A DNA stretch of 64,000 nucleotides from Escherichia coli (GTDB lineage: Bacteria > Pseudomonadota > Gammaproteobacteria > Enterobacterales > Enterobacteriaceae), in assembly GCF_022846255.1 (NCBI RefSeq), contig NZ_AP025682.1. One strand, 5' to 3'. The position numbers and the translations under genes are program-made. Below, one piece after another: positions 12,708-60,824 of the stretch. The notes beneath the pieces were generated by a model. The model was not told the DNA's origin. It worked only from the letters and a program-made list of their open reading frames with translations, and did not search any database. Position 1 is the first letter of the stretch. Each line of letters begins with the position of its first letter.

Positions 12708-13204
12708 AAAAAAATAACATATGATTTCTTACCAATGCTAAATAGTATACCCCAATCTTTATTAATGCATAGTGATGCTTAATCATTATGTTGCAGTTGA
12801 TCGACACAGGGGGACAAGAGTAGTTGTGTCACTGCCACATCACCCGGCATGCGATTTCACATCGGGATGTTCGAGAAGCATCAATGCTGCGCCCAAGATC
12901 CACCGAAAAGAAACGTGGGAATCACCGGCGGTGGGATTCATTGTCTATGCCCGTGTAGATTAGTGTGGATTTGCTGCACAGATGGTTCCGGTCTGAGAAA
13001 TGGGTAAATTCGTCGTTTACGACGGGAAGCTGCCTACACATGTTATACATCGTCTTCGTGTATCAACATGCTCCTATAAACTCGACTCAACTCACATTTT
13101 TCATTTCACATTGTAAAAACCTTTGACATGCAGAACCTTATTCTGATTCATTATATTCAACATGAAGAACTTTTGTTCCATATACAGAACTTAGTGAGAG
13201 CGAT

Positions 13205-14104: not shown

Positions 14105-14120
14105 TCACGAGGGACGCAGG

Positions 14121-15638: not shown

Positions 15639-15705
15639 TAACACAGGGCAGAGTTTATCCTGCCCTGTTGAAGTAAACACCGTTTTAGATAATTAGAGGT
15701 GAATA

Positions 15706-16713: not shown

Positions 16714-16983
16714 AAATTCATAATAGCAGATAATATAATGTCTAATCTATACAGATAGATGTGAATATTATCTGCGTTATAATAAACTGTATAAGGCTAT
16801 TATAAATAACAGTCGGTGTTTTGATAAGTTGCTGGTTGTTATATCTTTAAAACGAGTTGATGATATTTATTTACTAGATATTCAGTGCGATTATAGCAGT
16901 ACTGTATCGCAAGAAAATAGCAGTGCTGGGGAAGTAGAAAGAATAAATTGCGATTTGCATGCTCATAGATAAGGATAGATCTC

Positions 16984-18342: not shown

Positions 18343-18427
18343 TGGTTCTGTATTCAATATATAAGAAAGCAATATCAAGTTTTAACATCTTTAATTTAAT
18401 AGATATAGTATTAAAGGAGAGTAATTT

Positions 18428-19693: not shown

Positions 19694-19702
19694 GAGATAA
19701 AC

Positions 19703-26949: not shown

Positions 26950-27076
26950 CTGGGGGCCTCGCAATAGATTGACCAAGATGTGCCCCTAAATAGGCCCCCA
27001 AATGTGACTTGATTTACGTTCCCCTGAGGAGAATTAAGGCGACTATTTGAGTAACATAAGTAAGGGTATGTGCTGA

Positions 27077-28813: not shown

Positions 28814-29115
28814 TAGGTAAGTTCGTTCGAGAGGGATTTCAAGCAAAAACAATCAATGGCACCCAATAGAAAATATTGGCGATGCGCTCGAACGAATAAA
28901 GAAGCCCTATGCGCAATCCACACGCTACGATGTTGCAACAACACTCCATCTACTTTTTATTCTCATTCACTAAATGTGGCTGTTCTGGATTCATTATTCA
29001 AAGTGTGTACAAGATCACATTTAATCACTTCATTACGGTTCAGCATGCTGAACAAAGCATATTTTCCACTATGTAATGCCGATACCATTTATTCCATGAG
29101 CAAGGAGGAGCCATT

Positions 29116-35593: not shown

Positions 35594-35625
35594 CTGCCCC
35601 ATGTGGATATGGGGCAGGATTTTAT
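35594..35625. terminator. bidirectional rho-independent terminator
   Basis: Stem CTGCCCCAT / ATGGGGCAG with 6-nt loop, followed by GATTTTATT; sits between convergent genes. Confidence 0.6.
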
Positions 35626-36626
35626 TGATTAGCGGCGATAATAAGAACAATACCCACAATGTATGAAATAAACATAGTCAGCAGCAGTTTATTGGTTCCG
35701 GCTGGCGCACTGGCAAATTCTCTCCAGATGAAGACTCCCCAGATCACGGCAATCATTGTGGCACCCTGTCCCAGACCGTAGGAAATGGCATAACCCGCCT
35801 GACCAGACGCAATCAAACTGAATGCCAGACCGACACACCAAATCATACCGCCCAGCCAGCCGCAAACATGATCCCGTAAACTCCCGGAAAAATACATTTT
35901 CCTGTTGACAGGTTCTCCTGAAATAGGCTTTTTCATGACCAGCGTGTTAAGGACAAAGTTCGACAAAAACAGCCCCACGGCAAACAGAACAAGTGCTGAG
36001 TACGGCGTCATCAGACCGCTGGCAGGCTGGCTGAAATTGTCAGACATGGAGTCCGCCAGGAAGCGGAAAAACCATCCCATGATGATACCCGCAAGAATGG
36101 CAGTGATGAGGCCTTTGTTACGGCGAGATTTATCCGCCTCCTGCGTGACACGGCCATAGGCTATCGCGGTAAAAATAATGGCGATCACAACGCAGGCGAC
36201 ACCGAGGAACAGAATGAGCGGATCGCCCTGCGGATTGCCGATATAGGTGGTGATCACACCCAGAGCCAGTGCCAGCCCCACCCCCACAGGAAAAGCTACC
36301 GCCATACCGGCAAGATTAATAGAAGCCACCAGAAGAATATTGGAAATATTGAAGATAATCCCTGCCAGTATTGCCGACATCAGACTACTGTTGCTCGCCT
36401 GCTGAATATCAGGTATAAAGCTGCGACCGGCTTCGCCCATAGAACCCAGAGTGAAGGCAAATAACAAAGAACACAGCAATAATCCAATTGAATAATCCCA
36501 ATAGAATAGAGGGAACTCCCATTTTTTATTACTGACAAGTTTAGTTGTATTCGCCCATGAACCCCAGCAAATCATAGTAATAAAACACATTATTATGGCG
36601 ACAGCATACGATTCCACGATAAACAT
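35622..36626 (-). CDS. sugar transporter (DMT/GRP-type, RhaT-like fold)
   Basis: 334-aa polytopic ORF; SD AAGGAG; last gene of the minus-strand mtnK operon. Confidence 0.55.
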   Translation of the reverse strand: MFIVESYAVAIIMCFITMICWGSWANTTKLVSNKKWEFPLFYWDYSIGLLLCSLLFAFTLGSMGEAGRSFIPDIQQASNSSLMSAILAGIIFNISNILLVASINLAGMAVAFPVGVGLALALGVITTYIGNPQGDPLILFLGVACVVIAIIFTAIAYGRVTQEADKSRRNKGLITAILAGIIMGWFFRFLADSMSDNFSQPASGLMTPYSALVLFAVGLFLSNFVLNTLVMKKPISGEPVNRKMYFSGSLRDHVCGWLGGMIWCVGLAFSLIASGQAGYAISYGLGQGATMIAVIWGVFIWREFASAPAGTNKLLLTMFISYIVGIVLIIAANQ

Positions 36627-36729
36627 AAATAACTCCTTGTGGTAGTTATAATCAATCGTTGTGGACAGAGGGCATAACAGCCATTCCTCGAATGGCTGTT
36701 ATATGTTATTAATTAAAATAAAGCTGTAA

Positions 36730-37371
36730 TTACGCTTTCAAACCATACGTTTTGAATTTTTCAAGAACGATGGTCATTTCGGCTTCAGACAGAACGGGAA
36801 CATCGTGATGTAATCCGCCACATTTGATGTATAAATCAGCCAGCGTCTCAGTTTCACCCGCCAGCCACAACGTCTTTTCCAGCGTGACGTCCATGGCCAG
36901 CATACCGTGGTGCTGCATCAGCAAGGACTTACTTTCTCTGATTCCTTGAGATACACTGTCGGCCAGTTCAGGGCTGCCAAAGGTATAATAGGGAATACAG
37001 GGAATATGATCCGTCCCCGATACCGCCACCATATAATGAATAGCCGGAATTGAATGATTATGTATTGCCACCGCCGTGGAATTCACCGCATGCGTATGTA
37101 TGACAGCATTCAATTCTGGTCTGGCTTTATAACACGCCAGATGAAATAGCCATTCACTTGATGGTATTTTACCCGCTTCAGGTATTCCCTTATCGTCTAC
37201 AAAGACAATCATGTCCGGCGTCATCTTTGAATAAGCGATCCCACTCGGTGTAATCAACATGCCACCGGTATATCTGGCACTCACATTACCTGATGTTCCT
37301 TGATTCAGACCTGACGCATTCATTTCCCGACAAATGGAAATGATATTTTCTGCTAACTTAATCCTTTCCAT
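36730..37371 (-). CDS. class II aldolase/adducin-family protein (MtnB-like; DHAP-shunt aldolase candidate)
   Basis: 213-aa ORF; SD AAGGAG; class II aldolase metal-binding His pattern (HTHAVNSTAVAIHNH...). Confidence 0.8.
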   Translation of the reverse strand: MERIKLAENIISICREMNASGLNQGTSGNVSARYTGGMLITPSGIAYSKMTPDMIVFVDDKGIPEAGKIPSSEWLFHLACYKARPELNAVIHTHAVNSTAVAIHNHSIPAIHYMVAVSGTDHIPCIPYYTFGSPELADSVSQGIRESKSLLMQHHGMLAMDVTLEKTLWLAGETETLADLYIKCGGLHHDVPVLSEAEMTIVLEKFKTYGLKA

Positions 37372-37401
37372 TACTGCTCCTTAACAGAAGTGATCGTCGT
37401 T

Positions 37402-38517
37402 TTAATGCAGCTCGTCCTGGAGTGCTTTACTCTTCAGGTCAGCAAACATATCCGCCAGAGCTGACTTACTGGCAGCACAGACTCCCCGTTCAGTAATGAG
37501 GCCGGTAATGTATCGGGCAGGCGTGACGTCGAAAGCGTAGTTCTCACAACGGGTTCCTTCAGGGGCGGTATTGACCCAGCTCAATTCTCCCTGAGTATTT
37601 ATCCCATAGACATGGGACTGCTCTTTTCCGTCACGTTGCTCAATCGGAATGGTTTTTCCGTCCTCGATAGTCCAGTCAATAGTGGGAGAAGGTAGCGCGA
37701 CGTAGAAGGGAACATGGTTATCATGGGCCGCCAGCGCCTTAAGATAGGTACCAATTTTATTACAGACATCCCCTCTGGCCGTGGTTCGATCGGTCCCCAC
37801 TATACAGAGATCAACGTCACCGTGTTGCATCAGGTGGCCACCCGCATTGTCGGCAATCAGGGTGTGAGGAATACCGTGTGAACCCAGTTCAAATGCCGTG
37901 AGTCCACCCTGATTACGTGGCCGCGTTTCATCCACCCAGACGTGAACAGGGATTCCGTTTTCATGCGCTTTATAGATGGGAGAAAGCGCGGTTCCCCAGT
38001 CTACGGTCGCCAGCCAGCCTGCGTTACAATGTGTCAGGATATTGACCACACTCCCGGCCGATTTTTTCTGGGCTATTTCGCGGATGACTTCTGCACCATG
38101 TAATCCAATTTGTTCGCACAACGCGACATCTTCCTCGGCAATTTCTGCCGCCAGCGCCCAGGCCACATCCTTGCGCTCTGATACACAGAGATCCTTCAGT
38201 GTGGCTATCATCCTGTCGAGAGCCCATTTGAGGTTAATTGCAGTTGGTCGGGTTTTGATAAGAAGGTCATAGTAACGCTGCAGACCTACGTCACTGGCAT
38301 TGTGGTTCATTCCCAGTGCGATACCATATGCCGCAACGACACCAATAAGCGGGGCGCCACGAACCCACATCTCCTGAATAGCCGCAGCGGCCATTTCCGC
38401 AGAGGTAAGCGCCACCACTTCAAACTTAAAAGGCAGCTTAGTCTGATCGATGATCTCTACCGCTTTTCCATCCCCGGAAACCCAGACCGTTCGGTAGTGT
38501 TTACCTTTAATATTCAT
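37402..38517 (-). CDS. mtnA: 5-methylthioribose-1-phosphate isomerase family (MtnA-like)
   Basis: 371-aa ORF; SD AAGAGG; eIF-2B alpha/beta/delta-type isomerase pattern. Confidence 0.85.
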
Positions 38518-38526
38518 AATGACCTC

Positions 38527-39786
38527 TTACTTAACCTTCGCAGACTGGATGACGGAGTCCATATTTTTAAACTGGCGGGCATTGACAATAAGATCGCGCG
38601 CCATGGTCAATGCACGTCGTTCACATTCTGCGCGAAGCTCTGTATTTTCAATCTGTTTCAGCTCGGCAACGCCAGCAAAACCAATGATCCGGCGATTCAT
38701 TTCCATGCCGGCATTCACCAGGGAATCTTCAAGCAGCGTGGCAAAAAACTGATCCTGTGCGTCCTCAAGAGCGGCCCTGTTCTGTTGATACATTTCTGTC
38801 GGCCACGCGTCACCCTGTGTTTTGTTGTCCCAGAGCTGGCGGAACTCCCGGGTGAAAACTGACCAGGTGTGGACAATCTGCTGAAGTAGCCATTCCTGAT
38901 AGTCAGCGCGACGTTGCTCATTTGCATCCCACCCAGGGCGTGAGAAGAACGCCAGCAGGAGGTTGCCAATATAGTTGCCGATATCAAACGCCATTGGTCC
39001 CATGAAACCGAACTCCGGATCAATCACTTTGGTATCCGTGTCGGTCACCATGATTGAGCCTGAATGAAGGTCACCATGTAACAATGCCTGCGCTTCTGTC
39101 ATAAATTTGTACTTATAACGCATGGCAACCTGGAGCATCTCTACATCAGCCCAGGCCTTATGGACGGCATCGTCCAGCTCAGGAGAAGTCCAGTTATTCC
39201 GTTCCGCGTTGTAATAGGGCTCTGTGAAGATCAGATCTTCCGTAATTTTGCACAGCTCATGATTCAACGCGAACTCAGCAGTAAGCGCTTTTTTCTGTTC
39301 TGCTGACATGCCAATGTCAGACGTATTAAAGAGAGTCTGTGCTAAAAATCTGCCGATATCTTCAGCTAGCTTAGGGAATTTTTTACCGTTAATCAGTCCC
39401 TTACGCAGAATTACGTGAGGCGTCAAATACTCCATGGCAAACAGTGCCATTTCCGGGTCATAAAAATAGACCTGGGGAATCAGTGTGTGACCCGCGTACT
39501 TGGCTTCCTGACATAAGACGTTGTACTCAAAGCCCGCACGGCTCAGAGATAAAGGCCATCCTTCGCCCCCTGCACGAAGCCAGGGCAGAGCTTGTTTTAC
39601 AATGATGGTTTTATGTGTCCCCTTAACGATAAACACCATGTTCAGGTTTCCGTCCCCCACTTCTGAAACTTTCCACTCTTCTGGTAACCCTCCCGGTTCG
39701 CATGAAGGGGTCAGTCTGGACGAGAGATAACCAGGCAGCGTGTCACATGTCAGCGGCTTGTAACCTGATGGAATTGAATCCGTCAT
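38527..39786 (-). CDS. mtnK: 5-methylthioribose kinase family (MtnK-like)
   Basis: 419-aa ORF; SD AAGGAG; aminoglycoside-phosphotransferase-like kinase with MtnK pattern (EVGDGNLNMVF...IVKQALPW...HGDLHSGSIMV...KVIDPEFGFMGP). Confidence 0.85.
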   Translation of the reverse strand: MTDSIPSGYKPLTCDTLPGYLSSRLTPSCEPGGLPEEWKVSEVGDGNLNMVFIVKGTHKTIIVKQALPWLRAGGEGWPLSLSRAGFEYNVLCQEAKYAGHTLIPQVYFYDPEMALFAMEYLTPHVILRKGLINGKKFPKLAEDIGRFLAQTLFNTSDIGMSAEQKKALTAEFALNHELCKITEDLIFTEPYYNAERNNWTSPELDDAVHKAWADVEMLQVAMRYKYKFMTEAQALLHGDLHSGSIMVTDTDTKVIDPEFGFMGPMAFDIGNYIGNLLLAFFSRPGWDANEQRRADYQEWLLQQIVHTWSVFTREFRQLWDNKTQGDAWPTEMYQQNRAALEDAQDQFFATLLEDSLVNAGMEMNRRIIGFAGVAELKQIENTELRAECERRALTMARDLIVNARQFKNMDSVIQSAKVK

Positions 39787-43833: not shown

Positions 43834-45024
43834 TTAACGTTTCCGTCCTGGAAATACAAATAGTGCAATAACGGGAGATATTACCATCAGAACAAAAACA
43901 TAGGTAAATCCAAGTGTAAATCCGCCTGTTAGATCGACCGACCAGCCAATTAACTGACTGTTTATCGTTGCCAAAATAAATGTACAAACCCAGAAGGTGG
44001 ACATTGAATAAGTAACAGTTTGAGTATTCGCATTTTTTTGTTCTTCTTTTGGAATGGAGAAGATGAATGCAAACCAGGTGGCAAAAATAGAACCCGTCAA
44101 AAACGAACAAACCAATATAACGATATCATTAGTGGCAAATAACATTGCAAAGGTTGTAATAGCCATAAAGATACTGGAAATAAATAGCCATGATTTATAA
44201 TTATACCCACGGTTTTTAAAGTACGGCCCCATCAATGCACCAAGTAAAATCCCCACCTGATTGACTGTGCCACTCAAGTGAGCACAGGAGTCAGGGGGAA
44301 GATTAGCATATTTTGCATAGTACAGAGGCAGAAATGTGAACATAAAAATCATCATGATCATTGCCCCAGCATACTGAATAATCATTCCCCAGACAATACG
44401 ATTAAACAATACATCCTTTAATACAGATATTCGCTGTTCATAACTTATAGATATATGGCTATTCTGTTGTTGCTCTTCATCCGTGAAACATATTATCCAG
44501 ACAACCCCCAATATTAACGTAATTATTCCATAGATAGCTAACAGATTACGCCACCCGTTGAACAGCAGTGATAAATAACCTGCCAATGTCAATGCAATAA
44601 TTGTACCGATAATATTTGAAGTGCAATTTATACTATTTAATGTTGACGCCATTTTGTTATCGAAAAAGCGAGCAACCGTGGGCACCAGTGATACAAGGCA
44701 AATAGCCCCCCCCAGCCCACCAAGAAAACGAATAATCAATAACAAAGTAAAGTTATTAATAAATGGAATGAGCAAGGAGCTCCCAATCATTATACATCCA
44801 AGAAAATAGGATTTTCGGGTGCCGAGCCGGGAAACAAAGACTGCAGTACAAACAGCTCCCACAATTTTAGCCCATAAAATTACATTTGACATCAATGCAG
44901 CATGTGATACATCAACATTAAAATCACTCATAATTTGTGGCATTACGGCCCCTGTCGTAGCCCAGGCGGCACCAAATACCATATAAACGGTGTAAAGAAT
45001 GAATTCAATGACCCATTTTTTCAT
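43834..45024 (-). CDS. MFS transporter
   Basis: 396-aa 12-TM ORF; SD GAGG; 4-nt overlap with upstream peptidase gene. Confidence 0.8.
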   Translation of the reverse strand: MKKWVIEFILYTVYMVFGAAWATTGAVMPQIMSDFNVDVSHAALMSNVILWAKIVGAVCTAVFVSRLGTRKSYFLGCIMIGSSLLIPFINNFTLLLIIRFLGGLGGAICLVSLVPTVARFFDNKMASTLNSINCTSNIIGTIIALTLAGYLSLLFNGWRNLLAIYGIITLILGVVWIICFTDEEQQQNSHISISYEQRISVLKDVLFNRIVWGMIIQYAGAMIMMIFMFTFLPLYYAKYANLPPDSCAHLSGTVNQVGILLGALMGPYFKNRGYNYKSWLFISSIFMAITTFAMLFATNDIVILVCSFLTGSIFATWFAFIFSIPKEEQKNANTQTVTYSMSTFWVCTFILATINSQLIGWSVDLTGGFTLGFTYVFVLMVISPVIALFVFPGRKR

Positions 45025-46274
45025 TTTTGTACCTCAGGGACACTTAGCTCAACCATTTCCAGCAGCATTTCACTGGCAAGACGCAGGGATTCCACAGGCA
45101 AAAACTCTCTGGTTGAGTGAAAATTGTGCGCCCCTGTAAATATATTAATAGTAGGCAGCCCTTTTGGGGTGATGACGCTACCATCATAACCACCGCGCAT
45201 AATCAGTGGTTTTGGTGTAATGCCAAGGTTACGCATTGCCTGTCTAACGTTATCTAAGATTGCAGGTGTTTTATCAAGCGCTGGTTTGACATTTTCATAT
45301 ATATCGGTTAACACTAATGTTATTCTTTCACTCTTCCAGCGCTGATTAATACTCTTAACAATGTTCTCGAGTACGGCTTTACGTTGTTTATATCCTGTTA
45401 ACTCAAAGTCCCGAATAGCAATATCAAGCGTGGCGCTGGCTGTATCACCATGGAGATTATGGACCCAATAATATCCTTCCCGTTTTTCAGTATGCTCAGG
45501 CCTTTCTTTTTCAGGTAATGCGGCGATAATTTCCGTTGCTATACACAACGCATTAACAAGCTTACCTTTAGCACTCATTGGATGTGCTGTAACACCACGA
45601 ACTGTAATTCGTGCACTACCTGCATACCAGTTTTCAACAACATATTCTCCAATCTCACAACAGTCGAGACAGATACCAAAATCAGAATTCAGTTCACCAA
45701 CATCAAGCGCTTTTGCCCCTCTGATACCGGTCTCCTCATCAGGCAAAAGAACAAGACGAATATCACCATGAGAAAAGGAGGGTGTATTAATCATATATTT
45801 GAGAGCTTCAACACCTGCTGCAATGGCAGCTTTGTCGTCAGCCCCCAGCAAGCTGGTGCCATCAGTTACAATAATATCCTGACCGATATAGTTGAGTAGT
45901 TCTGGATTATCCTGTGGGGATAGTTTTTCCACACTCCCTGCAAACGGTATAGCACCTCCGTTATACTTTTTCACTCGGAAAGCATGTGTATCTGTACTGT
46001 GGTCCGGAGCTGTATCAAGGTGTGCAAAGAATACGATAGAAGGTGCATCAGGAATATTAGCGGGTAAATGAATTGTGGCAATAGCATTTTCTTTTATGCT
46101 TGTTTGTACCTCTGGAACATCAGAAAATTGACTTACAACATATTCTGCCAGTTTATATTGATTTTTACAGCTTGGAAGCTCCTTGCTACCATCAACCGAT
46201 GTCGTATTTATTTTTGTGTAATATAAAAAAGTCTCAATTATTTTCTCTAAGTCAATGCGTTTTTTCATGATCAT
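45021..46274 (-). CDS. peptidase T-like M20-family metallopeptidase (tripeptidase-like)
   Basis: 417-aa ORF; M20 metal-ligand motifs (HLDTAP; GADDKAAIAAGVEAL; HGDIRLVLLPDEETGIRGA). Confidence 0.8.
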   Translation of the reverse strand: MIMKKRIDLEKIIETFLYYTKINTTSVDGSKELPSCKNQYKLAEYVVSQFSDVPEVQTSIKENAIATIHLPANIPDAPSIVFFAHLDTAPDHSTDTHAFRVKKYNGGAIPFAGSVEKLSPQDNPELLNYIGQDIIVTDGTSLLGADDKAAIAAGVEALKYMINTPSFSHGDIRLVLLPDEETGIRGAKALDVGELNSDFGICLDCCEIGEYVVENWYAGSARITVRGVTAHPMSAKGKLVNALCIATEIIAALPEKERPEHTEKREGYYWVHNLHGDTASATLDIAIRDFELTGYKQRKAVLENIVKSINQRWKSERITLVLTDIYENVKPALDKTPAILDNVRQAMRNLGITPKPLIMRGGYDGSVITPKGLPTINIFTGAHNFHSTREFLPVESLRLASEMLLEMVELSVPEVQK

Positions 46275-46294
46275 ATACCTAATTGTTTACTATC

Positions 46295-46329
46295 AATATC
46301 CTGACTATCTATATTTAGATAATATCCTG
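46295..46329. promoter_or_regulatory. two direct repeats AATATCCTG spaced 26 bp, just upstream of the peptidase start
   Basis: Seen directly at 46295-46303 and 46321-46329; a GTCAGTTCCTGAC palindrome lies ~60 bp further upstream. Confidence 0.3.
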
Positions 46330-46479
46330 CAAAAATTAGTGAGTATAGAAAAGGTCGTCAGTTCCTGACTGGTAAATGTCCCTTCGAGATTTATTAGAGT
46401 CATAATTTGCCTCATCCCAATACAAAAAACAATACGAAAGTATGAAAAAGTGTAGTGATCAACAAAATATTGCCACGTT

Positions 46480-46556
46480 TGTTTCGGTGTTATTGGAGAG
46501 GTTTTTGGTGTTTTGTCCTTACGAGCATCACGCAGTTGTTTGCCCCATCTTGTCAT
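46480..46556 (-). pseudogene. IS911-like OrfA fragment
   Basis: Encodes [26 protein letters not shown], matching an internal segment of IS911-type OrfA. Confidence 0.4.
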
Positions 46557-46719
46557 CGTGGAAAGACGACATCAATAGCTTGGTGTAACTCTGGTCAACA
46601 ACCAGTTGCACGGAGTTGCATATGAATTCAGGAGCTTTTCACTGGTGCACCTATATTGGCATATCTGAACCGCCCCGGAAATCCTGGAGACTAAACTCTC
46701 TGAGAAAGAGGCAAACAGG

Positions 46720-46785
46720 ATGACTAAAAAAACACGTTTTTCCCCCGAAGTCCGTCAACGGGCAGTTCAATGCTTTGTCGAATAA
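46720..46785 (+). pseudogene. IS3-family OrfA 5' fragment
   Basis: Encodes MTKKTRFSPEVRQRAVQ, the N-terminus of IS3-family OrfA proteins; stops after 21 codons. Confidence 0.4.
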
Positions 46786-46899
46786 ACATTTACCTGAACG
46801 ATTAACTGCAACGGCTATCCTTACCGACAATCAACGTCAATAAAAATCTGTACTGACTCGTCAGCACTGGGTTCGATCAGTAGGAACATGAATTCAAAG

Positions 46900-46990
46900 G
46901 CCACCTTGCTGAATCTCAAGACTCCTCCGATTCCAAAGATAAACCCCGTCTTAAGTTCGCTGGCCTGAAATTCGGTGACTATTGTCTATA
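46900..46990 (+). pseudogene. porin gene fragment
   Basis: Encodes EFKG...DKPRLKFAGLKFGDY, matching the conserved beta-strand 2-3 region of the intact porin (EYEFKG...[17 protein letters not shown]). Confidence 0.4.
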
Positions 46991-47191
46991 TCGGGATCAC
47001 CACGGTTGTGTGATTAATCATCGTCGATCATAAAGCGTCTATGGATGTACTGCGGCGTTCCTGCTACTGGTGATCACCCTGTGGTTGTGCAATTCCAAAC
47101 GGCTGAAGCGAGAGTAACAGACATCACGCCGCAATCGGGGGCGGCGTGTAGACGTGGTTAATTACTATCAAATATATTAATCAGGCCGATT

Positions 47192-48643
47192 CTATTTGCT
47201 TTCATTTATGGTTTCCATCATGAGCTGTTGCTGCTTTTCTTTGGACAGTCGAGCGATACCAAAGCCTGTGAACCCCCACAGCGTCGCAAAGAAAATGCCA
47301 CTCCAGCAGAGAATAGCCCACGGAAGATAGCTTAATGTAGCAACGCCAAGTGTACCTGCCATGTAGGCACCCGCGGCAGTCCAGGGCAGAATTGGTTCAA
47401 ATATGGTGGCAGAGTCTTCTACAGTCCTTGCCAGATTTTTTGGATGTAGGCCGCGCTCAATATAAGCACTTCGTAGCATTTCAATCGGAATCAGGATTGA
47501 TATCTGACCATTACAGGTCACGCTAATCATTGTTAAACCACAGGCAATAGTCGCAAGAATCATGGTTCCTGTGGAATGAACTAATTTGAGCAGATTATGG
47601 ACGATGACTTCTAAAGCGCCGCTCAAGGCTAATGTTCCTGCAAATGAAAGGGCGCAGAAACAAATAAGCAACGTACTCATCATCGAGTTCATGCCACCGC
47701 GGTTTAACAAATTACCTAATAGCGGATTAACATCTTTATCGGTAAGCATTGAAACGTTAAATCCGTCTACTGCACTTTTAACAATGTCGTGTAGTGCGAA
47801 CCCCTGAATAACGCTGGCGTTGATCATGGCTACCAGTGCCGAAACAAGCATAATTGGAATGGTTGGTTTCTTGGTAATCGAACCGTACAGGACAATGGCA
47901 ATGGGTAGCAATAACAATAAATTAAAATGATAAATTCCTTTTAATCCTTCAGTGATTAGCTGAATTTTTTCGGGAATGGTTGAGCCGCCGAGCTCGCCAT
48001 TCATCCCATAGAGCGTCATAACAAAGGCTGACAGTATCAATGAAGGAAGGGTTGTATAAAGTAAATGAGCGATGTGTTCATAGAGATCTATCTGGGCTGC
48101 CATTGCGGCTAAGTTAGTATCACCAGAAAGGGGAGACAGTTTGTCCCCGAAGTAAGCCCCTGCCACAATAGCGCCTGCAGTTGCTGCCAGATTAGCCTCC
48201 ATTCCGATAGCCACACCCATAAACGCAACACCGACGGTGCCTGCGGATCCCCAGGATGTCCCTGTGCATACAGAAACGACGGCAGTAACGAGCAGGGCCG
48301 TCACATAGATCATGGAAGGATTTATCAGAATAAGGCCGTAATAAATCATCAGCGGAATAGTACCGCCTATCATCCATGTCCCAATCAGGAGGCCCACGCT
48401 GATCAAAATTAGCAGAGCAGGCATTGTTTTAGCGATTTTCTGCGATATTGATTCAAGGATTGCATTGTAGCCATACCCCAACCGCTTAACTAACAGTGCA
48501 GCAATGACGGTTGAAAGAACCATTAATGGCTCAGGTGGCAGATCGAATGCCGCATAACCAAATCCCAGCAATAGTATCATCGCTAGTATTGGTAATAATG
48601 ATTCCACCAGAGTTGGGGATCTTGGAGTATTGTTATTATTCAT
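47192..48643 (-). CDS. NhaC-family transporter
   Basis: ~484-aa polytopic ORF (ATG 48643, SD AGGAG inside the upstream gene's 3' end); NhaC-type pattern. Confidence 0.75.
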   Translation of the reverse strand: MNNNNTPRSPTLVESLLPILAMILLLGFGYAAFDLPPEPLMVLSTVIAALLVKRLGYGYNAILESISQKIAKTMPALLILISVGLLIGTWMIGGTIPLMIYYGLILINPSMIYVTALLVTAVVSVCTGTSWGSAGTVGVAFMGVAIGMEANLAATAGAIVAGAYFGDKLSPLSGDTNLAAMAAQIDLYEHIAHLLYTTLPSLILSAFVMTLYGMNGELGGSTIPEKIQLITEGLKGIYHFNLLLLLPIAIVLYGSITKKPTIPIMLVSALVAMINASVIQGFALHDIVKSAVDGFNVSMLTDKDVNPLLGNLLNRGGMNSMMSTLLICFCALSFAGTLALSGALEVIVHNLLKLVHSTGTMILATIACGLTMISVTCNGQISILIPIEMLRSAYIERGLHPKNLARTVEDSATIFEPILPWTAAGAYMAGTLGVATLSYLPWAILCWSGIFFATLWGFTGFGIARLSKEKQQQLMMETINESK

Positions 48644-49814
48644 GAAGGGAAACTCCTGTAGTGAAGGGGATGCTCTGATAAATCCGTTCAAATGCTTGTG
48701 TAAGATTGCTTCTCGGCGTGGCTATGTTCACACGGAAAAAACCAAGTCCTTCATCGCCAAAATCTGATCCCCAGCTCATCTCAACACCTGCGAGCGAGAC
48801 AAACCAATGGCGTAGTTGCTCTTCGCTGATGTTCATTGCCCGGTAGTCGATCCACAACATGTAAGTTCCGCCACCAGAGGCGACAAACCAGTCTGGAAAA
48901 TGAGCTTGGCAGAATGATTGAACCCAGCTCCTGTTTTCGACCAAATAATCTTTTAATGCTGCTAACCAAGAATCGCCATGGCGGTAAGCACAGAGAAATG
49001 CAGGAACAGAGAAATAACCAGGATTATGGATACCTGCTGCAATAAGAGCTAATTTAAACTGTTCACGATATTTATCGTTAGCAATAACAATATTTGCGAT
49101 TTCAAGTCCGGCCATATTAAAAGTTTTTGCTGGAGATGTACAAATAAACGAGTTTTGTGCAACGTATGAGCTTATAGAAGAAATTGTTTGATGTTGTTTT
49201 TGGGTGAAGTTGAAGTCTGCATGAACATCATCAGAAATAATAAAAATATTATATTTTTCTGCTAATGAAGCTATTTTCCTTAGATTGTCTTCTGACCAGA
49301 TTGTTCCTGTTGGATTATGCGGCGATATTAGAATGAAACAACAAGCCATTTTAAACTTATCTTCGAGATCCGCAAAGTCTATTTCATAGTGGTGGTCACG
49401 ATAAAGTAACGCACTTTCCAGCAATACTCGATGGTTGACTTCAACTGCATGACTAATAGGATGATAGGCTGGTGTCAGGCTGACAATAGCATCTCCCGGT
49501 TGGGTAAAGTTCTGGATAAATAATGAGACGGCCTGTACTACCCGTGGGCAAAAAACAATGTGTTCAGGGTTGACCTTCCACGAGTAATGGCGTTGATACC
49601 ACTGTGCTGCCACTTGCTGCCAGTCATCACTTAATAATGTATAACCGTAGATACCTTTCTGATTTGCGACAGATAATTCAGAAACTATAAAATCAGCTAC
49701 AGGAATATCCATATCAGCTACAGACAGGGGAATGATGTCACGCCCCTTGTTATTATATTTAGCGCTATAGGTTCCGTCGCGTGAAATAACTTTATCAAAA
49801 TTATAAACTTTCAT
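48636..49814 (-). CDS. PLP-dependent C-S lyase (MalY/PatB cystathionine beta-lyase family)
   Basis: ~392-aa ORF from ATG 49814 (MKVYNFDKVISRDGTYSAKY...); aminotransferase class I/II fold pattern; 2-nt gap to NhaC start. Confidence 0.8.
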   Translation of the reverse strand: MKVYNFDKVISRDGTYSAKYNNKGRDIIPLSVADMDIPVADFIVSELSVANQKGIYGYTLLSDDWQQVAAQWYQRHYSWKVNPEHIVFCPRVVQAVSLFIQNFTQPGDAIVSLTPAYHPISHAVEVNHRVLLESALLYRDHHYEIDFADLEDKFKMACCFILISPHNPTGTIWSEDNLRKIASLAEKYNIFIISDDVHADFNFTQKQHQTISSISSYVAQNSFICTSPAKTFNMAGLEIANIVIANDKYREQFKLALIAAGIHNPGYFSVPAFLCAYRHGDSWLAALKDYLVENRSWVQSFCQAHFPDWFVASGGGTYMLWIDYRAMNISEEQLRHWFVSLAGVEMSWGSDFGDEGLGFFRVNIATPRSNLTQAFERIYQSIPFTTGVSLHE

Positions 49815-49913
49815 ATTTGTTACTCGCCCGGTTTTATCGTTAGGGTAATGTAATATTTCGAGGGAGGAAGTGTTATTCTGTATTTTGTTTTCGTTATTAT
49901 GAAAATTTGCATA

Positions 49914-49929
49914 TGTGATGTTTATCACA
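49914..49929. promoter_or_regulatory. consensus CRP site TGTGA-N6-TCACA
   Basis: TGTGATGTTTATCACA seen directly, ~100 bp upstream of the C-S lyase start on the minus strand (class I position). Confidence 0.5.
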
Positions 49930-50285
49930 AAGATGTTAACTATCTGTCAATAAAAAGACTCCAGCAAATGTAAACGTTTTACATCGCTTAAGCCTATGGA
50001 ATTTACATAAAAAAAGGGCGTGCCGAGTCTTTCGACCCAATCATTATCTCGGTAACTCCATTCACAAGAGCAGGAAATAACCTCTTCAACAAATAACAGA
50101 CTGATGCCTGCGAGCGCGCTCCCCAGGTTTCTGGGCTGAAAGTACCGCCGCACTCGTTTAACGCGGAACAGTCTGTGTTGGCGGTTTAATGGTGGATGTT
50201 GCTGTAGACCACAACTGATGAGGCAACGGAGTTTACCGTGATGATTCCTATTTATCATTTTCTGGTCAGTGCCGCGATTCTGGTA

Positions 50286-51515
<1,230 letters not shown>

Positions 51516-55464: not shown

Positions 55465-56751
55465 TTAACAAGTTTGTGCTTTTGCTTCAGTGGATTTTTT
55501 AGTGCTAAACGAGGTGAGTGAGGTGAGCAACACTGCCACAACCAGCGAAGCACTCATAAAGACATAAGAAGCACCTGGATCGCCCGTTAATCCATTCAGA
55601 TAACCGACAATCCATGAACCAACGAATGAGCCCAGAGCACCGAAACTTACGATAAATGCCATCGCACCAGCCATCACATTACGAGGGATAATTTCTGGTA
55701 TTGCGGCAAAGAATGGTCCGTAAGGTGTATACATCGCGCCACCTGCAACCATCAACAGGATATACGAGAGCCAAAAGTTGGATTCTCCAACGGTAAACGA
55801 ACCAATAAAGCAGAACGCACCCAATCCTAAAAACAGAAGAACAATGATTTTACGGTTCATAAATTTATCTGAATACCAAGACGCGCCGAGCATAAGTGAT
55901 ACAGCTAATAAGTAGGGTGCTGCTGATAGCCAACCTATTGCTACGATGCTTAATTCAGATGCTGATTTCAAAATAGACGGTAGCCACATAATAAATCCAT
56001 ACATCCCAATATTCCAGAAGAAGTGGATAAATGAGAGTGATAAGACTTTGCCTGAACGAAATGCTTCGCTGTAGTTTTTAATTTCTTTAATATTGGTTTG
56101 CTCTGCCGCAAGTGCCGCTTCTATATCTTTTTTTTCGTGCTCTGTTAACCAGGTTGCATCTGTGGGGCGATCAACAAAGACAAACCACCAGATAACTGCC
56201 CAAATGATGGCAGGGATGCCTTCGATAATAAACATACCACGCCAGCCAAAGGAGTCCACGAGATAGCCTGATAGCACTGACATCCAGAGTACTGTTATGG
56301 GGTTGCCAAGAAAAAGGAAGGTGTTAGCTTTCGACCTTTCTTTCTTAGTGAACCAATGGCTCAGGAAAACAAGCATGGCAGGCATCACAACGCTTTCAGC
56401 CACGCCGAGTAAGAAGCGAATGACCGCTAGGACCTTAACGTCGTGGACCATGCCGGTCGCTGTCGCTAGTATTCCCCACAGAATTAAGCTCCAAAAAATA
56501 AGCTTCTTGGCACTTCTTTTTTCAGCATAAATCCCTCCAGGTACCTGAAAGAAAAAATATCCAAGGAAGAACAGTGCACCCAGTAGTGAGGAAATCCCTG
56601 GTGTAATATTGAGATCCTCAGCCAGACCGGAGGCAGCACCAAAGCCATAATTAGCGCGATCAAGATAGGCAAGGCTATACGTAATAAATGCCAGCGGGAT
56701 CAACTTACGCCAGCGAATCGGCGCTAATTTTTTATGTATATTCTGAACCAT
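55465..56751 (-). CDS. MFS transporter (ACS/hexuronate-aldonate type)
   Basis: 428-aa ORF with LDRANYGFGA N-terminal MFS signature. Confidence 0.85.
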   Translation of the reverse strand: MVQNIHKKLAPIRWRKLIPLAFITYSLAYLDRANYGFGAASGLAEDLNITPGISSLLGALFFLGYFFFQVPGGIYAEKRSAKKLIFWSLILWGILATATGMVHDVKVLAVIRFLLGVAESVVMPAMLVFLSHWFTKKERSKANTFLFLGNPITVLWMSVLSGYLVDSFGWRGMFIIEGIPAIIWAVIWWFVFVDRPTDATWLTEHEKKDIEAALAAEQTNIKEIKNYSEAFRSGKVLSLSFIHFFWNIGMYGFIMWLPSILKSASELSIVAIGWLSAAPYLLAVSLMLGASWYSDKFMNRKIIVLLFLGLGAFCFIGSFTVGESNFWLSYILLMVAGGAMYTPYGPFFAAIPEIIPRNVMAGAMAFIVSFGALGSFVGSWIVGYLNGLTGDPGASYVFMSASLVVAVLLTSLTSFSTKKSTEAKAQTC

Positions 56752-56806
56752 GATGTTTTCCCATTTAATTACTGCAGTTCGTATAACGAATGTCAGTAGA
56801 TGTTAA

Positions 56807-57574
56807 TTACAGCACCGCGAGCCACCCACCATCAACGTAAATAATTTGTCCATTGATATAATCTGATGCTTTGGATGATAAGAAGATGGCAGTTCCGATG
56901 AGTTCCTCTGGATGTCCCCAACGTTGGGACGGGTTGCTGTTTTTCACCCAAGAATCGAAGTGTTTGTCTTCGATAAGCGCAGTGTTCATGTCGGTGAGAA
57001 TGTAGCCCGGTCCAATGGCATTGGTCTGAATATTAAACTGTGCCCATTCTGCGGCCATTGAACAGGTAAGCATTTTGATGCCGCCTTTTGCTGCCGTGTA
57101 TGGAGCAACTGTTGGACGTGCGGCCTGGCTAGTGAGTGAACCGATATTAATGATTTTGCCACCGCGTTTATGGTCAATCATCCGCTTTGCCGCCGCGCGG
57201 GACACGAGAAATGCACTAGTTAAGTTCGTGTCGATCACCTTCTGCCAGTTTTCCAACTCCAGTTCAACCATCGGTTTGCGGTACTGAATACCAGCGTTAT
57301 TAATCAGGATATCAATACTGATCCCTTGCGCATCAAGTTGACTAAAAGCTGATTCAATCGCTTGTTCATTGGTGACGTCAAAAGCCACACCGTGCGCATC
57401 GTAACCCTTGCTTGTCAGAGACTTTACTGCTTCTGCCAGCAACGTGTCGCGAATATCATTCAGGATGACTCGAGCACCCGCAACGGCAAGTCCCTCTGCA
57501 TAGGCAAGGCCCAGTCCACGTGCTGCACCTGTTACCAACGCCGTTTTCCCCGTTAAATCAAATAAAGCGTTCAT
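56807..57574 (-). CDS. SDR-family oxidoreductase (gluconate 5-dehydrogenase / KduD-like)
   Basis: 255-aa ORF; SD GAGGA; TGAARGLG cofactor motif and YxxxK catalytic motif (YTAAK). Confidence 0.85.
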   Translation of the reverse strand: MNALFDLTGKTALVTGAARGLGLAYAEGLAVAGARVILNDIRDTLLAEAVKSLTSKGYDAHGVAFDVTNEQAIESAFSQLDAQGISIDILINNAGIQYRKPMVELELENWQKVIDTNLTSAFLVSRAAAKRMIDHKRGGKIINIGSLTSQAARPTVAPYTAAKGGIKMLTCSMAAEWAQFNIQTNAIGPGYILTDMNTALIEDKHFDSWVKNSNPSQRWGHPEELIGTAIFLSSKASDYINGQIIYVDGGWLAVL

Positions 57575-57595
57575 ATTGTTTCCTCATGCATTTGT

Positions 57596-57625
57596 GTTGT
57601 ATGACAACTACCTTTTAAAAGGTAG
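57596..57625. promoter_or_regulatory. GTTGT-N3-ACAAC palindrome plus adjacent 18-bp perfect palindrome CTACCTTTTAAAAGGTAG (candidate GntR operator)
   Basis: Seen directly 22-50 bp upstream of the SDR start; second copy of the GTTGTAnGACAAC motif at 57829-57841. Confidence 0.35.
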
Positions 57626-57828
57626 GGGGTTCGCTACGACAAAAGCAACAATGTGCCCATGAATTTGCAACATGGATCACAAATAGCTTTGTGCAATGAT
57701 TGATGGTCTTATTTAATTTATTGAATTATATGGTGTAATATTTATATTGATGAGCATGGTTTGATCACTGTCACAGAATGGCGTTCGCAACGATCACTTG
57801 CAAATGAAGCGTGATATAACAATGTTGG

Positions 57829-57841
57829 TTGTAGGACAACC
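57829..57841. promoter_or_regulatory. second GTTGT-N3-ACAAC palindrome (candidate GntR operator)
   Basis: GTTGTAGGACAAC ~70 bp upstream of the ManD-like start; overlapping TGTAGG/CCTACA palindrome. Confidence 0.35.
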
Positions 57842-57909
57842 TACATGTTGTGTTGTTCATAACGATATGGATATGGCATACGAGAAAATTACTGAGCTGA
57901 GGTGTAAAA

Positions 57910-59163
57910 GTGAGTAGCCTGAAAATAACTAACGTGAAGACGATTCTGACGGCACCAGGCGGCATTGATTTAGCGGTCGTGAAAGTCGAGACCAACGAGC
58001 CAGGACTATACGGGTTGGGATGTGCAACATTTACTCAGCGTATCTTTGCAGTAAAAAGCGCAATCGATGAATACATGGCACCTTTCCTGATTGGGAAAGA
58101 TCCTACTCGTATTGAAGATATCTGGCAGTCGGGTGCGGTGAGTGGCTACTGGCGTAGTGGTCCCATTATGAACAATGCGTTGTCTGGTGTGGACATGGCA
58201 CTGTGGGATATCAAAGGTAAACTGGCGGGGATGCCGGTTTATGACTTGCTGGGTGGCAAATGCCGTGATGGTATCCCACTATACTGTCATACCGACGGTA
58301 GCGATGAAGTTGAAGTAGAAGATAACATCCGTGCCAGAATGGAAGAGGGTTACCAGTATGTTCGCTGCCAGATGGGCATGTACGGCGGCGCGGGGACTGA
58401 TGACCTTAAACTGATCGCTACGCAGTTGGCGCGAGCGAAGAACATTCAGCCGAAGCGTTCGCCCCGCAGCAAAACGCCCGGTATCTACTTTGATCCGGAT
58501 GCCTACGCCAAAAGCGTTCCACGTTTGTTTGATCACCTGCGTAACAAGCTGGGATTTGGCATTGAATTTATTCATGATGTGCACGAGCGTGTCACCCCTG
58601 TGACCGCTGTTAACCTGGCTAAAACGCTCGAACAATATCAGCTGTTTTATCTTGAAGATCCGGTGGCACCTGAAAACATCGACTGGTTGAAAATGCTGCG
58701 TCAGCAGTCTTCCACTCCGATATCCATGGGTGAACTGTTTGTAAATGTGAATGAGTGGAAACCGCTCATCGACAATAAACTCATCGACTACATTCGCTGC
58801 CACGTGAGTACTATTGGTGGCATTACACCGGCGAAAAAACTTGCGGTCTACAGCGAGTTGAACGGTGTGCGAACCGCATGGCATGGGCCGGGCGATATTT
58901 CTCCGGTCGGGGTCTGCGCTAATATGCATCTGGACTTGAGTTCACCGAACTTTGGTATTCAGGAATACACGCCAATGAACGACGCGCTGCGTGATGTATT
59001 TCCGGGCTGCCCTGAGATTGACCGCGGTTATGCCTATCTGAACGAGAAGCCGGGTCTGGGGATTGAGATTGATGAAGCTAAAGCGGCAAAATACCCGTGT
59101 GAGGGTGGGATACCGTCGTGGACGATGGCGCGTACACCTGACGGTACTGCCTCAAGACCATAA
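57910..59163 (+). CDS. enolase-superfamily dehydratase, mannonate dehydratase (ManD)-like
   Basis: 417-aa ORF (GTG start, SD GAGGTG); ManD-subgroup pattern (DMALWDIKGKLAGMPVYDLLGG...YLEDP...GPGD). Confidence 0.8.
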   Translation: MSSLKITNVKTILTAPGGIDLAVVKVETNEPGLYGLGCATFTQRIFAVKSAIDEYMAPFLIGKDPTRIEDIWQSGAVSGYWRSGPIMNNALSGVDMALWDIKGKLAGMPVYDLLGGKCRDGIPLYCHTDGSDEVEVEDNIRARMEEGYQYVRCQMGMYGGAGTDDLKLIATQLARAKNIQPKRSPRSKTPGIYFDPDAYAKSVPRLFDHLRNKLGFGIEFIHDVHERVTPVTAVNLAKTLEQYQLFYLEDPVAPENIDWLKMLRQQSSTPISMGELFVNVNEWKPLIDNKLIDYIRCHVSTIGGITPAKKLAVYSELNGVRTAWHGPGDISPVGVCANMHLDLSSPNFGIQEYTPMNDALRDVFPGCPEIDRGYAYLNEKPGLGIEIDEAKAAKYPCEGGIPSWTMARTPDGTASRP

Positions 59164-59561: not shown

Positions 59562-60824
59562 TTATTTTAATGGATTATTAATCTTTGCATATTCAAATGG
59601 ACTGATAAATCTTTCTCTATTTGCATCCAGAAAATCGGCCCACCATTGTAGCATCAGTCGACGTTCTTCCAGATGTTCTGCTTTATGAATGTAAGCAGCA
59701 CGTACACCATTACGCTCCTGATGGCTCATCTGACGTTCCACAGCATCGCGGGACCACAAACCTGATTCAATCAATGCACTGCACGCCATCGCCCGGAATC
59801 CATGGCCACAGACTTCCTGGGTTGTGTCATATCCCATAACCCTCAGGGCTTTATTTACGGTATTTTCGCTGATTGGTTTACGTGGGTCATGTGCCCCCGT
59901 AAAGATCAGACCATTTTCACCAGCCCATGTCTGAAGTTCTGTCAGTATGGCTACAGCCTGTTTGCTGAGTGGCACAAGATGTGGTGTTCGCATCTTGGAG
60001 CCTCGGTGTGAGAATTTTACGCCTGGCAGAGGTTCGCGTTCGGCTGGAATAGTCCACATGGCATTGTCAATATCAATTTCAGACCAGCGGGCATATCTGA
60101 GTTCACTGGAACGAATAAAAACCAGTAAATTCAGCATAACTGCCCGTCGGGTGACAGGCTGGCCTTTATAACCGCCAATACGCGACAGAAGTTCAGGCAG
60201 ACGTGAAAGATCCAGAGCTGGGCGATGCTGGCGTTTTACCGTAGTCAATGCACCAGCCATATCCAGAGCCGGGTTATATCTGATGATGCCAGACTGTACG
60301 GCATAACGCATTACAGCAGATATTCTTTGCTGCAGACGACTGGCGATTTCATAAATTTGTTTAGCTTCTGCAGCACGAACAGGGATAAGCAGGTCCGGGG
60401 TACTGAGTGTTGTGATATCCCGGTTGCCGATAAAGGGGAATACGTGTGTCTCGAGGCTTTTGAGTACTTTATCGCTGTGTGATTGTGCCCATTGTTTATT
60501 ACTGGCATGCCAGCGTCGTGCAATATGTTCAAAAGAGAGCTGTAAATCAGGGACTACTTTTTTAGCTCTTTTCTGTTCGCAAGGGTCAATCCCCTCCGAA
60601 ATCAGTTTTCGGGCCTCATCCCGTTTTGTACGAGCTTCGGAGAGAGAAACTTCTGGATACACACCAAGTGCCAGAGTCTTCTCCTTACCCAGAATACGAT
60701 AACGGAGACGCCAGTAACGGGAACCATTAGGATGAACCAGCAGGAACATGCCGGCCCCGTCAGTGAGTTTATAAGCCTTGTCAGTGGGCTTTGCAGCCCG
60801 GATTTTTGCGTCAGTCAGCGCCAT
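59562..60824 (-). CDS. int: P4-type tyrosine integrase adjacent to tRNA-Phe
   Basis: 420-aa ORF; SD AAGG; P4-family N-terminus (MALTDAKIRAAKPTDKAYKLTDGAGMFLLVHPNGSRYWRLRY) and C-terminal catalytic region; tRNA upstream on the same strand. Confidence 0.9.
   Translation of the reverse strand: MALTDAKIRAAKPTDKAYKLTDGAGMFLLVHPNGSRYWRLRYRILGKEKTLALGVYPEVSLSEARTKRDEARKLISEGIDPCEQKRAKKVVPDLQLSFEHIARRWHASNKQWAQSHSDKVLKSLETHVFPFIGNRDITTLSTPDLLIPVRAAEAKQIYEIASRLQQRISAVMRYAVQSGIIRYNPALDMAGALTTVKRQHRPALDLSRLPELLSRIGGYKGQPVTRRAVMLNLLVFIRSSELRYARWSEIDIDNAMWTIPAEREPLPGVKFSHRGSKMRTPHLVPLSKQAVAILTELQTWAGENGLIFTGAHDPRKPISENTVNKALRVMGYDTTQEVCGHGFRAMACSALIESGLWSRDAVERQMSHQERNGVRAAYIHKAEHLEERRLMLQWWADFLDANRERFISPFEYAKINNPLK

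Follow-up and report, generated by a model that had tools for sequence, protein, structure and literature searches.

A lyase–transporter pair on a mobile Escherichia coli cassette as a probable member of the xylose regulon

Which compound is taken up and cleaved by a lyase and a transporter that travel together, and which signals switch them on, is the question raised by two adjacent genes at 47192–49814 of a 64,000-nucleotide stretch of Escherichia coli DNA (contig NZ_AP025682.1), referred to below as the window, which is part of an E. coli genomic island. The first gene encodes a pyridoxal 5'-phosphate (PLP)-dependent β-lyase of the MalY/PatB family and the second, nhaC, a membrane transporter of the NhaC family. 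A previous reading of this DNA, made from the letters alone and called here the sequence-only reading, had taken them for a catabolite-controlled module for the uptake and C-S cleavage of an S-substituted amino acid or cysteine conjugate. Compared across bacteria, the pair appears, with a probability of roughly 0.6, to be a two-gene operon of the xylose regulon, carried on a mobile cassette and acting as an uptake-and-cleavage pair, with a regulation, a direction of transport and a chemistry that are all predicted. The comparative evidence moves the cassette from generic labels into the XylR/CRP xylose regulon, the public records reading "MalY/PatB family protein" and "Na+/H+ antiporter NhaC", with Gene Ontology terms for methionine biosynthesis and sodium/proton transport added in the plasmid record. 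Moreover, the xylose loci of many animal-associated bacteria, from two phyla, contain the pair as a conserved and integral component, which marks a concrete gap in the textbook pathway, namely which amino-acid-like compound is taken up and cleaved alongside xylose catabolism. The regulatory design, as at xylE, and both protein families are known; the new points are the proposed regulon membership, a lyase subfamily of its own that co-evolves with a single transporter in different phyla, and the mobile cassette in E. coli.

Promoter architecture of the lyase-nhaC pair

The features on which the argument depends are the following.

49914–49929, read on the minus strand from 49929 to 49914: CRP site TGTGATAAACATCACA, both half-sites perfect
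49872–49913, minus strand: XylR-type operator of two direct repeats with a 21-nt period, beginning at the base after the CRP 16-mer
49847–49857, minus strand: candidate −10 region with overlapping AATATT, TATTAC and TACATT, placed by analogy with xylF and the orthologs
48636–49814, minus strand: PLP-dependent β-lyase, MalY/PatB family, 392 aa, ATG at 49814, matching TIGR04350
47192–48643, minus strand: NhaC-family (PF03553) membrane transporter, 483 aa, ATG at 48643, matching TIGR00931
47125–47148, minus strand: GC-rich, weakly terminator-like hairpin, 44 nt past the nhaC stop, its tail not strongly T-rich

The CRP site is the sole perfect TGTGA-N6-TCACA in the window and is centred 107.5 nt upstream of the lyase ATG, in agreement with the distance of about 100 bp given before. 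The count of one is not significant alone, as 0.14 such sites are expected per window by chance and at least one was found in 14 of 100 shuffles; it is the conservation that makes the site significant. Thus, a CRP site with no or one mismatch lies upstream of the lyase ATG in 27 of 27 gammaproteobacterial loci where the lyase heads its unit, at 102.5–127.5 nt (102.5–114.5 nt in all but one), and two further free-standing cassettes also keep it at the equivalent position. The N6 spacer and the flanks vary among these loci, and the background rate of sites with no or one mismatch in these same loci is 1.1e-4 per bp. Four loci deviate, and in these the lyase lies within a xylFGH-lyase-nhaC arrangement. 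The promoter region therefore carries a CRP consensus that is conserved in orthologs, as is typical of CRP-activated promoters.

The base after the CRP 16-mer begins the XylR-type operator, with the core hexamers CATAAT (49901–49896) and CAGAAT (49880–49875). The gammaproteobacterial promoters share this register, where the CRP 16-mer is followed by 12 nt, C[AG]TAAT, 15 nt and a second hexamer nnnAAT, and the operator aligns with the K-12 sites IA (CTCAAT-N15-CATAAT) and IF (CGTAAT-N15-TGTAAT). As described for XylR, its consensus has two repeats ending in AAT within approximately 37 bp adjoining the −35 region (PMC3561964), an arrangement also found here. In addition, the K-12 xylE promoter has been resolved by Sort-Seq and affinity purification into a CRP site, tandem XylR sites and RNA polymerase (PMC6003448), and its sequence reads CACAATTAAGATCACA, 12 nt, CGTAAA, 15 nt and GATAAT, with a spacing identical to that of the cassette promoter. 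The cassette thus resembles the K-12 xylE and xylAB/xylFGHR promoters in having a CRP site, two XylR direct repeats and RNA polymerase in the same order, and xylE also in the 12-nt gap from the CRP 16-mer to the first hexamer and the 21-nt repeat period (PMC6003448, PMC3561964). It differs in driving a PLP lyase and an NhaC permease instead of genes for xylose transport or catabolism, in being carried by a mobile island or plasmid, a long way from xylR, and in its perfect CRP half-sites, the left half being weak at K-12 xylE.

A position weight matrix of 42 nt was trained on 27 xylA/xylF promoter sites, dominated by those of Pasteurellaceae and including no lyase promoters. Across both strands of the window (128 kb scanned), it gave one match above 5 bits, at 49872–49913, abutting the CRP site. 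In each of the 27 orthologous promoters the best match starts directly after the CRP site (offset 0), as it does in the further free-standing cassettes. As the sole proof of a XylR site the matrix score was dropped, since it is not significant window-wide (P about 0.11 per window), and the weight therefore rests on register and conservation.

In the orthologs, −10-like hexamers (nATTAC, TAGTAT, CATTAT) lie 17–22 nt past the second XylR hexamer, as at K-12 xylF, and by this analogy the transcription start is predicted at about 49848–49838. A different candidate took the C[AG]TAAT hexamer, which follows the CRP site at a distance of 12 nt, for the −10 element (TAAACA-17-CATAAT). It was rejected because CRP would then sit at −32.5, or at about −53.5 if the second hexamer were used, which is unworkable; these hexamers are the XylR repeats. 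The resulting architecture would be CRP, XylR, XylR and RNA polymerase, co-activated as at xylE or araBAD.

This layout bears on the sequence-only reading, which had invoked the classic class I activation distance. That distance had been measured to the start codon and not to the transcription start, and XylR-type repeats fill the next 42 nt. A class I promoter has CRP as its sole activator at −61.5, −71.5, −82.5 or −92.5; the promoter is not of this type, because XylR-type repeats take up the 42 nt that separate the CRP site from the −35 region. What stands of the earlier proposal is catabolite control itself, which the conserved CRP site makes likely for the operon, whereas the simple class I mechanism gives way to co-activation. 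It is likely that CRP-cAMP and xylose-bound XylR co-activate the operon, so that the promoter would fire only with active cAMP-CRP (no glucose) and with chromosomal XylR loaded with D-xylose. The activator is available in trans, since xylR was found in 5422 of 5426 E. coli genomes; E. coli XylR is 68% identical to that of Proteus, with a well-conserved C-terminal region.

Regarding the genes themselves, the lyase open reading frame in the program-made list, 49928–48636 from a GTG, is an over-extension. The start is placed at the ATG 49814, because M1 is an invariant column in 27 homologs and RefSeq gives 1179 nt and 392 aa. At the junction, which reads cATGAATAA, the nhaC ATG (48643–48641) lies 2 nt before the lyase TAA (48638–48636). 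The two genes therefore share an 8-nt overlap (48636–48643), in accordance with the RefSeq annotation, in place of the 2-nt gap once assumed, and the tight coupling as an operon holds with this overlap. An AGGAG stands 9 nt ahead of the nhaC ATG, and the hairpin past nhaC probably, if tentatively, marks the end of the unit.

A near-palindrome, ATGTAAAACGTTTACAT, at 49968–49984, about 45 nt upstream of the CRP site, resembles an operator of the LacI family or similar; it is present in the E. coli cassette and absent from the upstream regions of the other genera compared.

The pair in xylose loci and as a mobile cassette

Orthologs of the lyase were scanned with one genome per species, giving 80 loci. 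In about 55 loci, from Enterobacterales to Firmicutes, nhaC directly follows the lyase gene at its 3' end, on the same strand, the taxa including Morganellaceae, Serratia, Zophobihabitans, the Enterobacteriaceae isolate B14, Pasteurellaceae, Paenibacillus, Lederbergia, Lachnoanaerobaculum and Anaerococcus. An NhaC partner is absent from lyase homologs of 36% identity or below. Across the loci, the transporter (51–87% identity) is more conserved than the lyase (41–74%). Furthermore, the pair has xylA, xylB, xylR or xylFGH within 8 kb in every locus of Morganellaceae, Serratia, Zophobihabitans, B14 and Pasteurellaceae, as well as in most loci of Lachnoanaerobaculum and both of Anaerococcus. Among these neighbours, xylose isomerase, xylulokinase, XylF and XylG were above the NCBIfam cut-offs and the AraC-type XylR was recognised by PF22177; for the XylH-like ABC permease the best model was below its cut-off. 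The arrangements are as follows.

Proteus, Serratia: xylR divergent from lyase-nhaC-xylA-xylB, with gaps of 10–12 nt
Zophobihabitans: xylR-xylB-xylA divergent from lyase-nhaC
Isolate B14: xylHGF divergent from lyase-nhaC-xylA-xylB
Most Pasteurellaceae: xylB-xylA divergent from lyase-nhaC, then xylFGH
Aggregatibacter, Mesocricetibacter, P. atlantica: xylFGH-lyase-nhaC
Lachnoanaerobaculum: xylA-ABC-lyase-nhaC
Anaerococcus: ROK regulator divergent from lyase-nhaC-ABC-xylA-xylB
Paenibacillus: yheO-like regulator, lyase, nhaC and ridA, no xyl genes
E. coli, Klebsiella oxytoca, Pluralibacter, two metagenomic contigs: the pair stands alone

The relatives of the pair are thus co-localised or co-transcribed with xylA, xylB, xylFGH or xylR, as members of the XylR regulon are. 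The matrix scan found no XylR site before xylA in Proteus and Serratia, and the lyase promoter is therefore also the xylAB promoter there. The E. coli cassette resembles the Proteus/Serratia-type operon and the Pasteurellaceae xyl loci in its orthologous CRP and XylR promoter and in its NhaC (62–87% identity), the lyase being 57–66% identical to the xyl-locus orthologs of Enterobacterales and 45–51% to those of Pasteurellaceae. It differs in that the copies of E. coli, K. oxytoca and Pluralibacter lost, or never had, adjacent xylAB and xylR, and are two-gene cassettes flanked by insertion sequence (IS) elements and pseudogene fragments. The free-standing cassettes of K. oxytoca, Pluralibacter and the two metagenomic contigs nevertheless keep the CRP and XylR-type promoter. 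The xyl locus of Haemophilus influenzae probably carries the same two genes. A variant occurs in Klebsiella indica (L012, 8001–11732), where the CRP and XylR-type promoter and the lyase are kept and NhaC gives way to an M20 amidohydrolase (CpsA-like) and a GPH glycoside symporter (YagG-like).

Within E. coli, the 2.7-kb cassette was found in 378 of 5426 complete genomes (about 7%), always with at least 99% identity, at 362 chromosomal and 41 plasmid places; its carriers include conjugative IncF plasmids, such as pAA-ST131. Outside the species, no lyase more than 74% identical was found in the protein database. The chromosomal copies are flanked by a psiE pseudogene fragment downstream, a phosphoethanolamine-transferase fragment upstream, and IS elements. 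In the window, an IS3-family element at 50296–51509 (orfA 51162–51509, orfB 50296–51063) stops some 360 nt short of the CRP site on its upstream side, and an IS3-family orfA fragment (MTKKTRFSPEVRQRAV...) and the psiE fragment lie downstream of the cassette (46275–47191). The promoter is intact and identical to that of strains without this IS3-family element. By these comparisons, the pair in E. coli is a mobile cassette that appears to retain its XylR/CRP promoter.

In the Firmicutes, no riboswitch or T-box leader was found upstream of the orthologs by a gathering-threshold Rfam scan of eight loci, which gave only an unrelated thiamine pyrophosphate riboswitch. Control of the Paenibacillus module by CcpA through a catabolite-responsive element (cre) was set aside as weak, a one-mismatch site being present in only 5 of 19 loci; the cre-like TGAAARCGNTTTA overlapping the −35 ahead of the four-gene unit is suggestive but weak. 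Also in Paenibacillus (L024–L064), a palindrome-like TTATCAAGATAATAAATTATTATC is conserved about 60–110 nt upstream of the yheO-like gene and is probably the operator of the module's own regulator. In Anaerococcus provencensis (L056, 2489–6679), amino-sugar and tagatose-phosphate-like genes, judged from N-terminal sequences, lie directly upstream of the ROK-lyase-nhaC-xyl cluster; they encode a SIS-domain protein, a deacetylase-like protein, a PfkB kinase and a tagatose-bisphosphate-type aldolase, which would fit the use of host glycans.

Substrate and rival explanations

Both family assignments of the sequence-only reading stand above their hidden Markov model cut-offs. The lyase reaches 370.5 bits with TIGR04350 (PatB family C-S lyase; cut-off 340), and the transporter 593.3 bits with TIGR00931 (NhaC; cut-off 370), with PF03553 matches on its orthologs. 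In the lyase, K230 (SPAKTFN motif) and R361 are invariant in 27 homologs and align with their counterparts in 4dgt, BsPatB and 9k71, corresponding to the PLP-binding lysine and the α-carboxylate-binding arginine of fold-type I enzymes; the lyase would therefore act on a free α-amino acid.

Besides these common residues, C89, R91, Q94, F201 and E331 are invariant in 62 of 62 NhaC-linked lyases, and the 21 outgroup and PDB enzymes have them rarely or not at all. The [ST]-P-G-x-x-P loop, typical of the family without formally defining it and present in the outgroup and PDB sequences, is replaced in the NhaC-linked lyases by CPRxxQ, here C89-P-R91-V-V-Q94. The lyases paired with NhaC form a distinct subfamily with the signature C89-P-R91-x-x-Q94, and the substitution of glycine and proline by R91 and Q94 suggests a polar leaving group. 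By comparison, ShPatB from Staphylococcus hominis has a hydrophobic pocket, including Val108, for aliphatic thiols (PMC7385124). By motif placement and approximate numbering, the CPRxxQ loop would hold the position equivalent to Val108.

The transporter shares its Pfam and TIGRFAM family (TC 2.A.35) with NhaC from Bacillus, MleN and predicted amino-acid transporters, and scores 286 bits with the model of the arginine/ornithine antiporter ArcD, below its cut-off of 650. A search found no solved structures for members of the family. Of these relatives, MleN is an organic-anion exchanger, and none is known to belong to a xylose regulon. The genomic context argues for an organic substrate, the name "Na+/H+ antiporter" being a homology transfer only.

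In the proposed mechanism, the NhaC-family permease would import an amino-acid-like compound, and the PatB-subfamily enzyme would eliminate its β-substituent, yielding pyruvate, ammonia and a leaving group. The substrate could be a xylose-bearing amino acid, with O-β-D-xylosyl-L-serine as the foremost guess, and its cleavage would free xylose as both inducer and carbon source. The Xyl-O-Ser unit is the linkage of proteoglycans and the stub left when animal proteoglycans are degraded, and O-xylosylserine was reportedly isolated from human urine in the 1960s. That NhaC imports this compound or a close glycosyl-amino acid, with β-elimination of the sugar to give xylose, pyruvate and ammonia, is a conjecture of low probability. 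It would account together for a pair that belongs to xylose regulons under two unrelated regulators, for the need of an α-amino acid, for the polar residues of the signature, for the variant with a glycoside symporter and for hosts that are mostly animal-associated. The GPH symporter of K. indica is likewise a hint of a sugar moiety. If a xylosylated amino acid were the substrate, it would mean new PLP chemistry, a previously unknown deglycosylation of an amino acid, and a supply of xylose from the host that would matter for urinary and mucosal colonisation. It would also explain why animal-restricted Pasteurellaceae, Proteus, oral Lachnospiraceae and Anaerococcus keep xylose genes, and would make the cassette a mobile niche trait of extraintestinal E. 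coli.

Several points weigh against membership of the xylose regulon or against this substrate. The module of Paenibacillus and other Bacillales has its own YheO-like regulator and no xylose link, and xylose therefore need not be part of the substrate. All characterised relatives of the lyase are C-S lyases, none being known to cleave O-glycosyl serine, and no characterised NhaC-family member is known to carry a sugar-bearing substrate. The matrix score of the E. coli operator is low (6.2 bits), a value reached somewhere in 11% of random 64-kb windows, and the CRP position of about −75 to −82 is reckoned from a predicted transcription start. In addition, a search of a literature library found no paper linking the lyase-nhaC genes with xylose or xylosylserine, nor anything relevant on PatB with NhaC, on HI1107/HI1108 or on bacterial catabolism of the linkage region.

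The Bacillales version, with its own regulator and RidA and no xyl genes, also suits the alternative closest to the sequence-only reading, where the pair takes up and cleaves a generic cysteine conjugate or S-substituted amino acid (cystathionine, S-methylcysteine, cystine or lanthionine) and the xylose link is regulatory hitch-hiking. The lyase passes the PatB C-S lyase model, its solved relatives in the PDB (4dgt, BsPatB, cystalysin, FnaPatB1 and MalY) are all C-S lyases, and so is ShPatB (PMC7385124). This alternative is nevertheless rather unlikely, as the xyl linkage recurs in two phyla under the unrelated AraC-type XylR and ROK protein, and the pair precedes xylAB within one operon in Proteus and Serratia. 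The five invariant signature residues, including the CPRxxQ loop with R91 for glycine, argue for a different specificity, and the glycoside symporter of K. indica also speaks against it. Of the earlier logic of uptake and C-S cleavage, the general scheme is reasonable, given the invariant K230 and R361 and the linkage to RidA in Paenibacillus, whereas a generic sulfur module is less likely, even if the substrate may contain sulfur; catabolism of S-substituted amino acids does not explain a pair embedded in xylose loci across two phyla. RidA, an enamine/imine deaminase, quenches the aminoacrylate made by β-eliminating PLP enzymes.

The uptake-and-cleavage pair favoured here has a parallel in the thioalcohol pathway of S. 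hominis (DtpT, the PepA dipeptidase and ShPatB), where a conjugate is imported and then cleaved by PatB-type β-elimination (PMC7385124), and the K. indica variant adds a peptidase-like amidohydrolase. The two systems differ in their unrelated regulation and transporter families, and in the hydrophobic pocket of ShPatB as opposed to the Arg91/Gln94 loop, a comparison made by motif position.

It is improbable that the pair is a helper of pentose fermentation, with NhaC as a true Na+/H+ antiporter and the PLP enzyme as an aminotransferase or a serine/cysteine deaminase that yields pyruvate, no special substrate being needed. The TIGR00931 match, the class I/II aminotransferase family matches of the lyase and the antiporter annotation in all public records are consistent with it. 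However, these names are homology transfers only, the NhaC family also contains MleN and several predicted amino-acid transporters, the transporter also matches the ArcD model (albeit below its cut-off), the replacement of NhaC by a glycoside symporter and an amidohydrolase in K. indica misfits a role in ion balance, and the signature residues indicate a specialised active site.

A MalY-like moonlighting role is more improbable still, where the lyase would bind and damp the xylose activator as a negative feedback and NhaC would be an ordinary Na+/H+ antiporter. The likeness to MalX-MalY of E. coli is real, as MalY too is a PLP lyase of the PatB/MalY family, its gene shares a transcript with the transporter gene malX within a CRP-dependent sugar regulon, and its known cellular role is the inhibition of MalT; the NhaC "equivalog" model is also passed. 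The differences are that MalX is a permease of the phosphotransferase system, that the gene order is reversed, that MalY, judged by the family pattern, would be without the CPRxxQ signature, and that no MalT-type inhibitory role is indicated for the cassette lyase. Moreover, xyl genes stand next to the pair under unrelated regulators (AraC-type XylR and the ROK protein of Anaerococcus), which is hard to reconcile with one protein contact, the catalytic residues do not vary, the transporter is inherited with the lyase in every case and is the better conserved of the two, and the RidA linkage points to a real flux of aminoacrylate.

Lastly, a CRP match that arose by chance and regulates nothing, as the occurrence of one perfect site in 14% of shuffled windows might suggest, is effectively refuted by the same position and perfect or near-perfect half-sites amid divergent spacers and flanks from E. 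coli to Pasteurellaceae.

Other genes of the island

A pepT-like tripeptidase gene and a gene for an MFS transporter (43834–46274), which overlap by 4 nt, lie about 0.9 kb downstream of nhaC. A functional link with the cassette, for instance through a peptide conjugate, was considered and rejected: the two are unlinked to it in any other genus and have no CRP or XylR site, and the psiE fragment and IS debris separate them from the cassette.

Further away, the window holds mtnK (38527–39786), mtnA (37402–38517), a gene for a fuculose-phosphate-type aldolase (36730–37371) and one for a GRP-family sugar transporter (35622–36626); this set (35622–39786) presumably resembles the 5'-deoxynucleoside/methylthioribose "dihydroxyacetone phosphate shunt" of extraintestinal E. 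coli. A mosaic of sugar-acid utilisation genes occupies 11946–20653 and 55465–59163, including those for an IclR regulator, a DapA-like aldolase, a galactarate-dehydratase-like protein, a PdxA-like dehydrogenase, GntP and MFS permeases, an SDR protein and a ManD-like dehydratase. Integrase genes are located at 25759–26976 and 59562–60824.

The yjhI-yjhH-yjhG (xylonate dehydratase) cluster, which starts at 29116, is preceded at about 100 nt by a one-mismatch CRP-like site, TGTGTACAAGATCACA (29004–29019); the island may have here another xylose-related unit under catabolite control. In E. coli O157:H16 Santai, the same island carries, beyond the extent of the window (L093, 12403–17064), a malX and MalY/PatB pair beside an "enterotoxin" gene, and pairs of a transporter with a PatB-type protein recur in sugar contexts.

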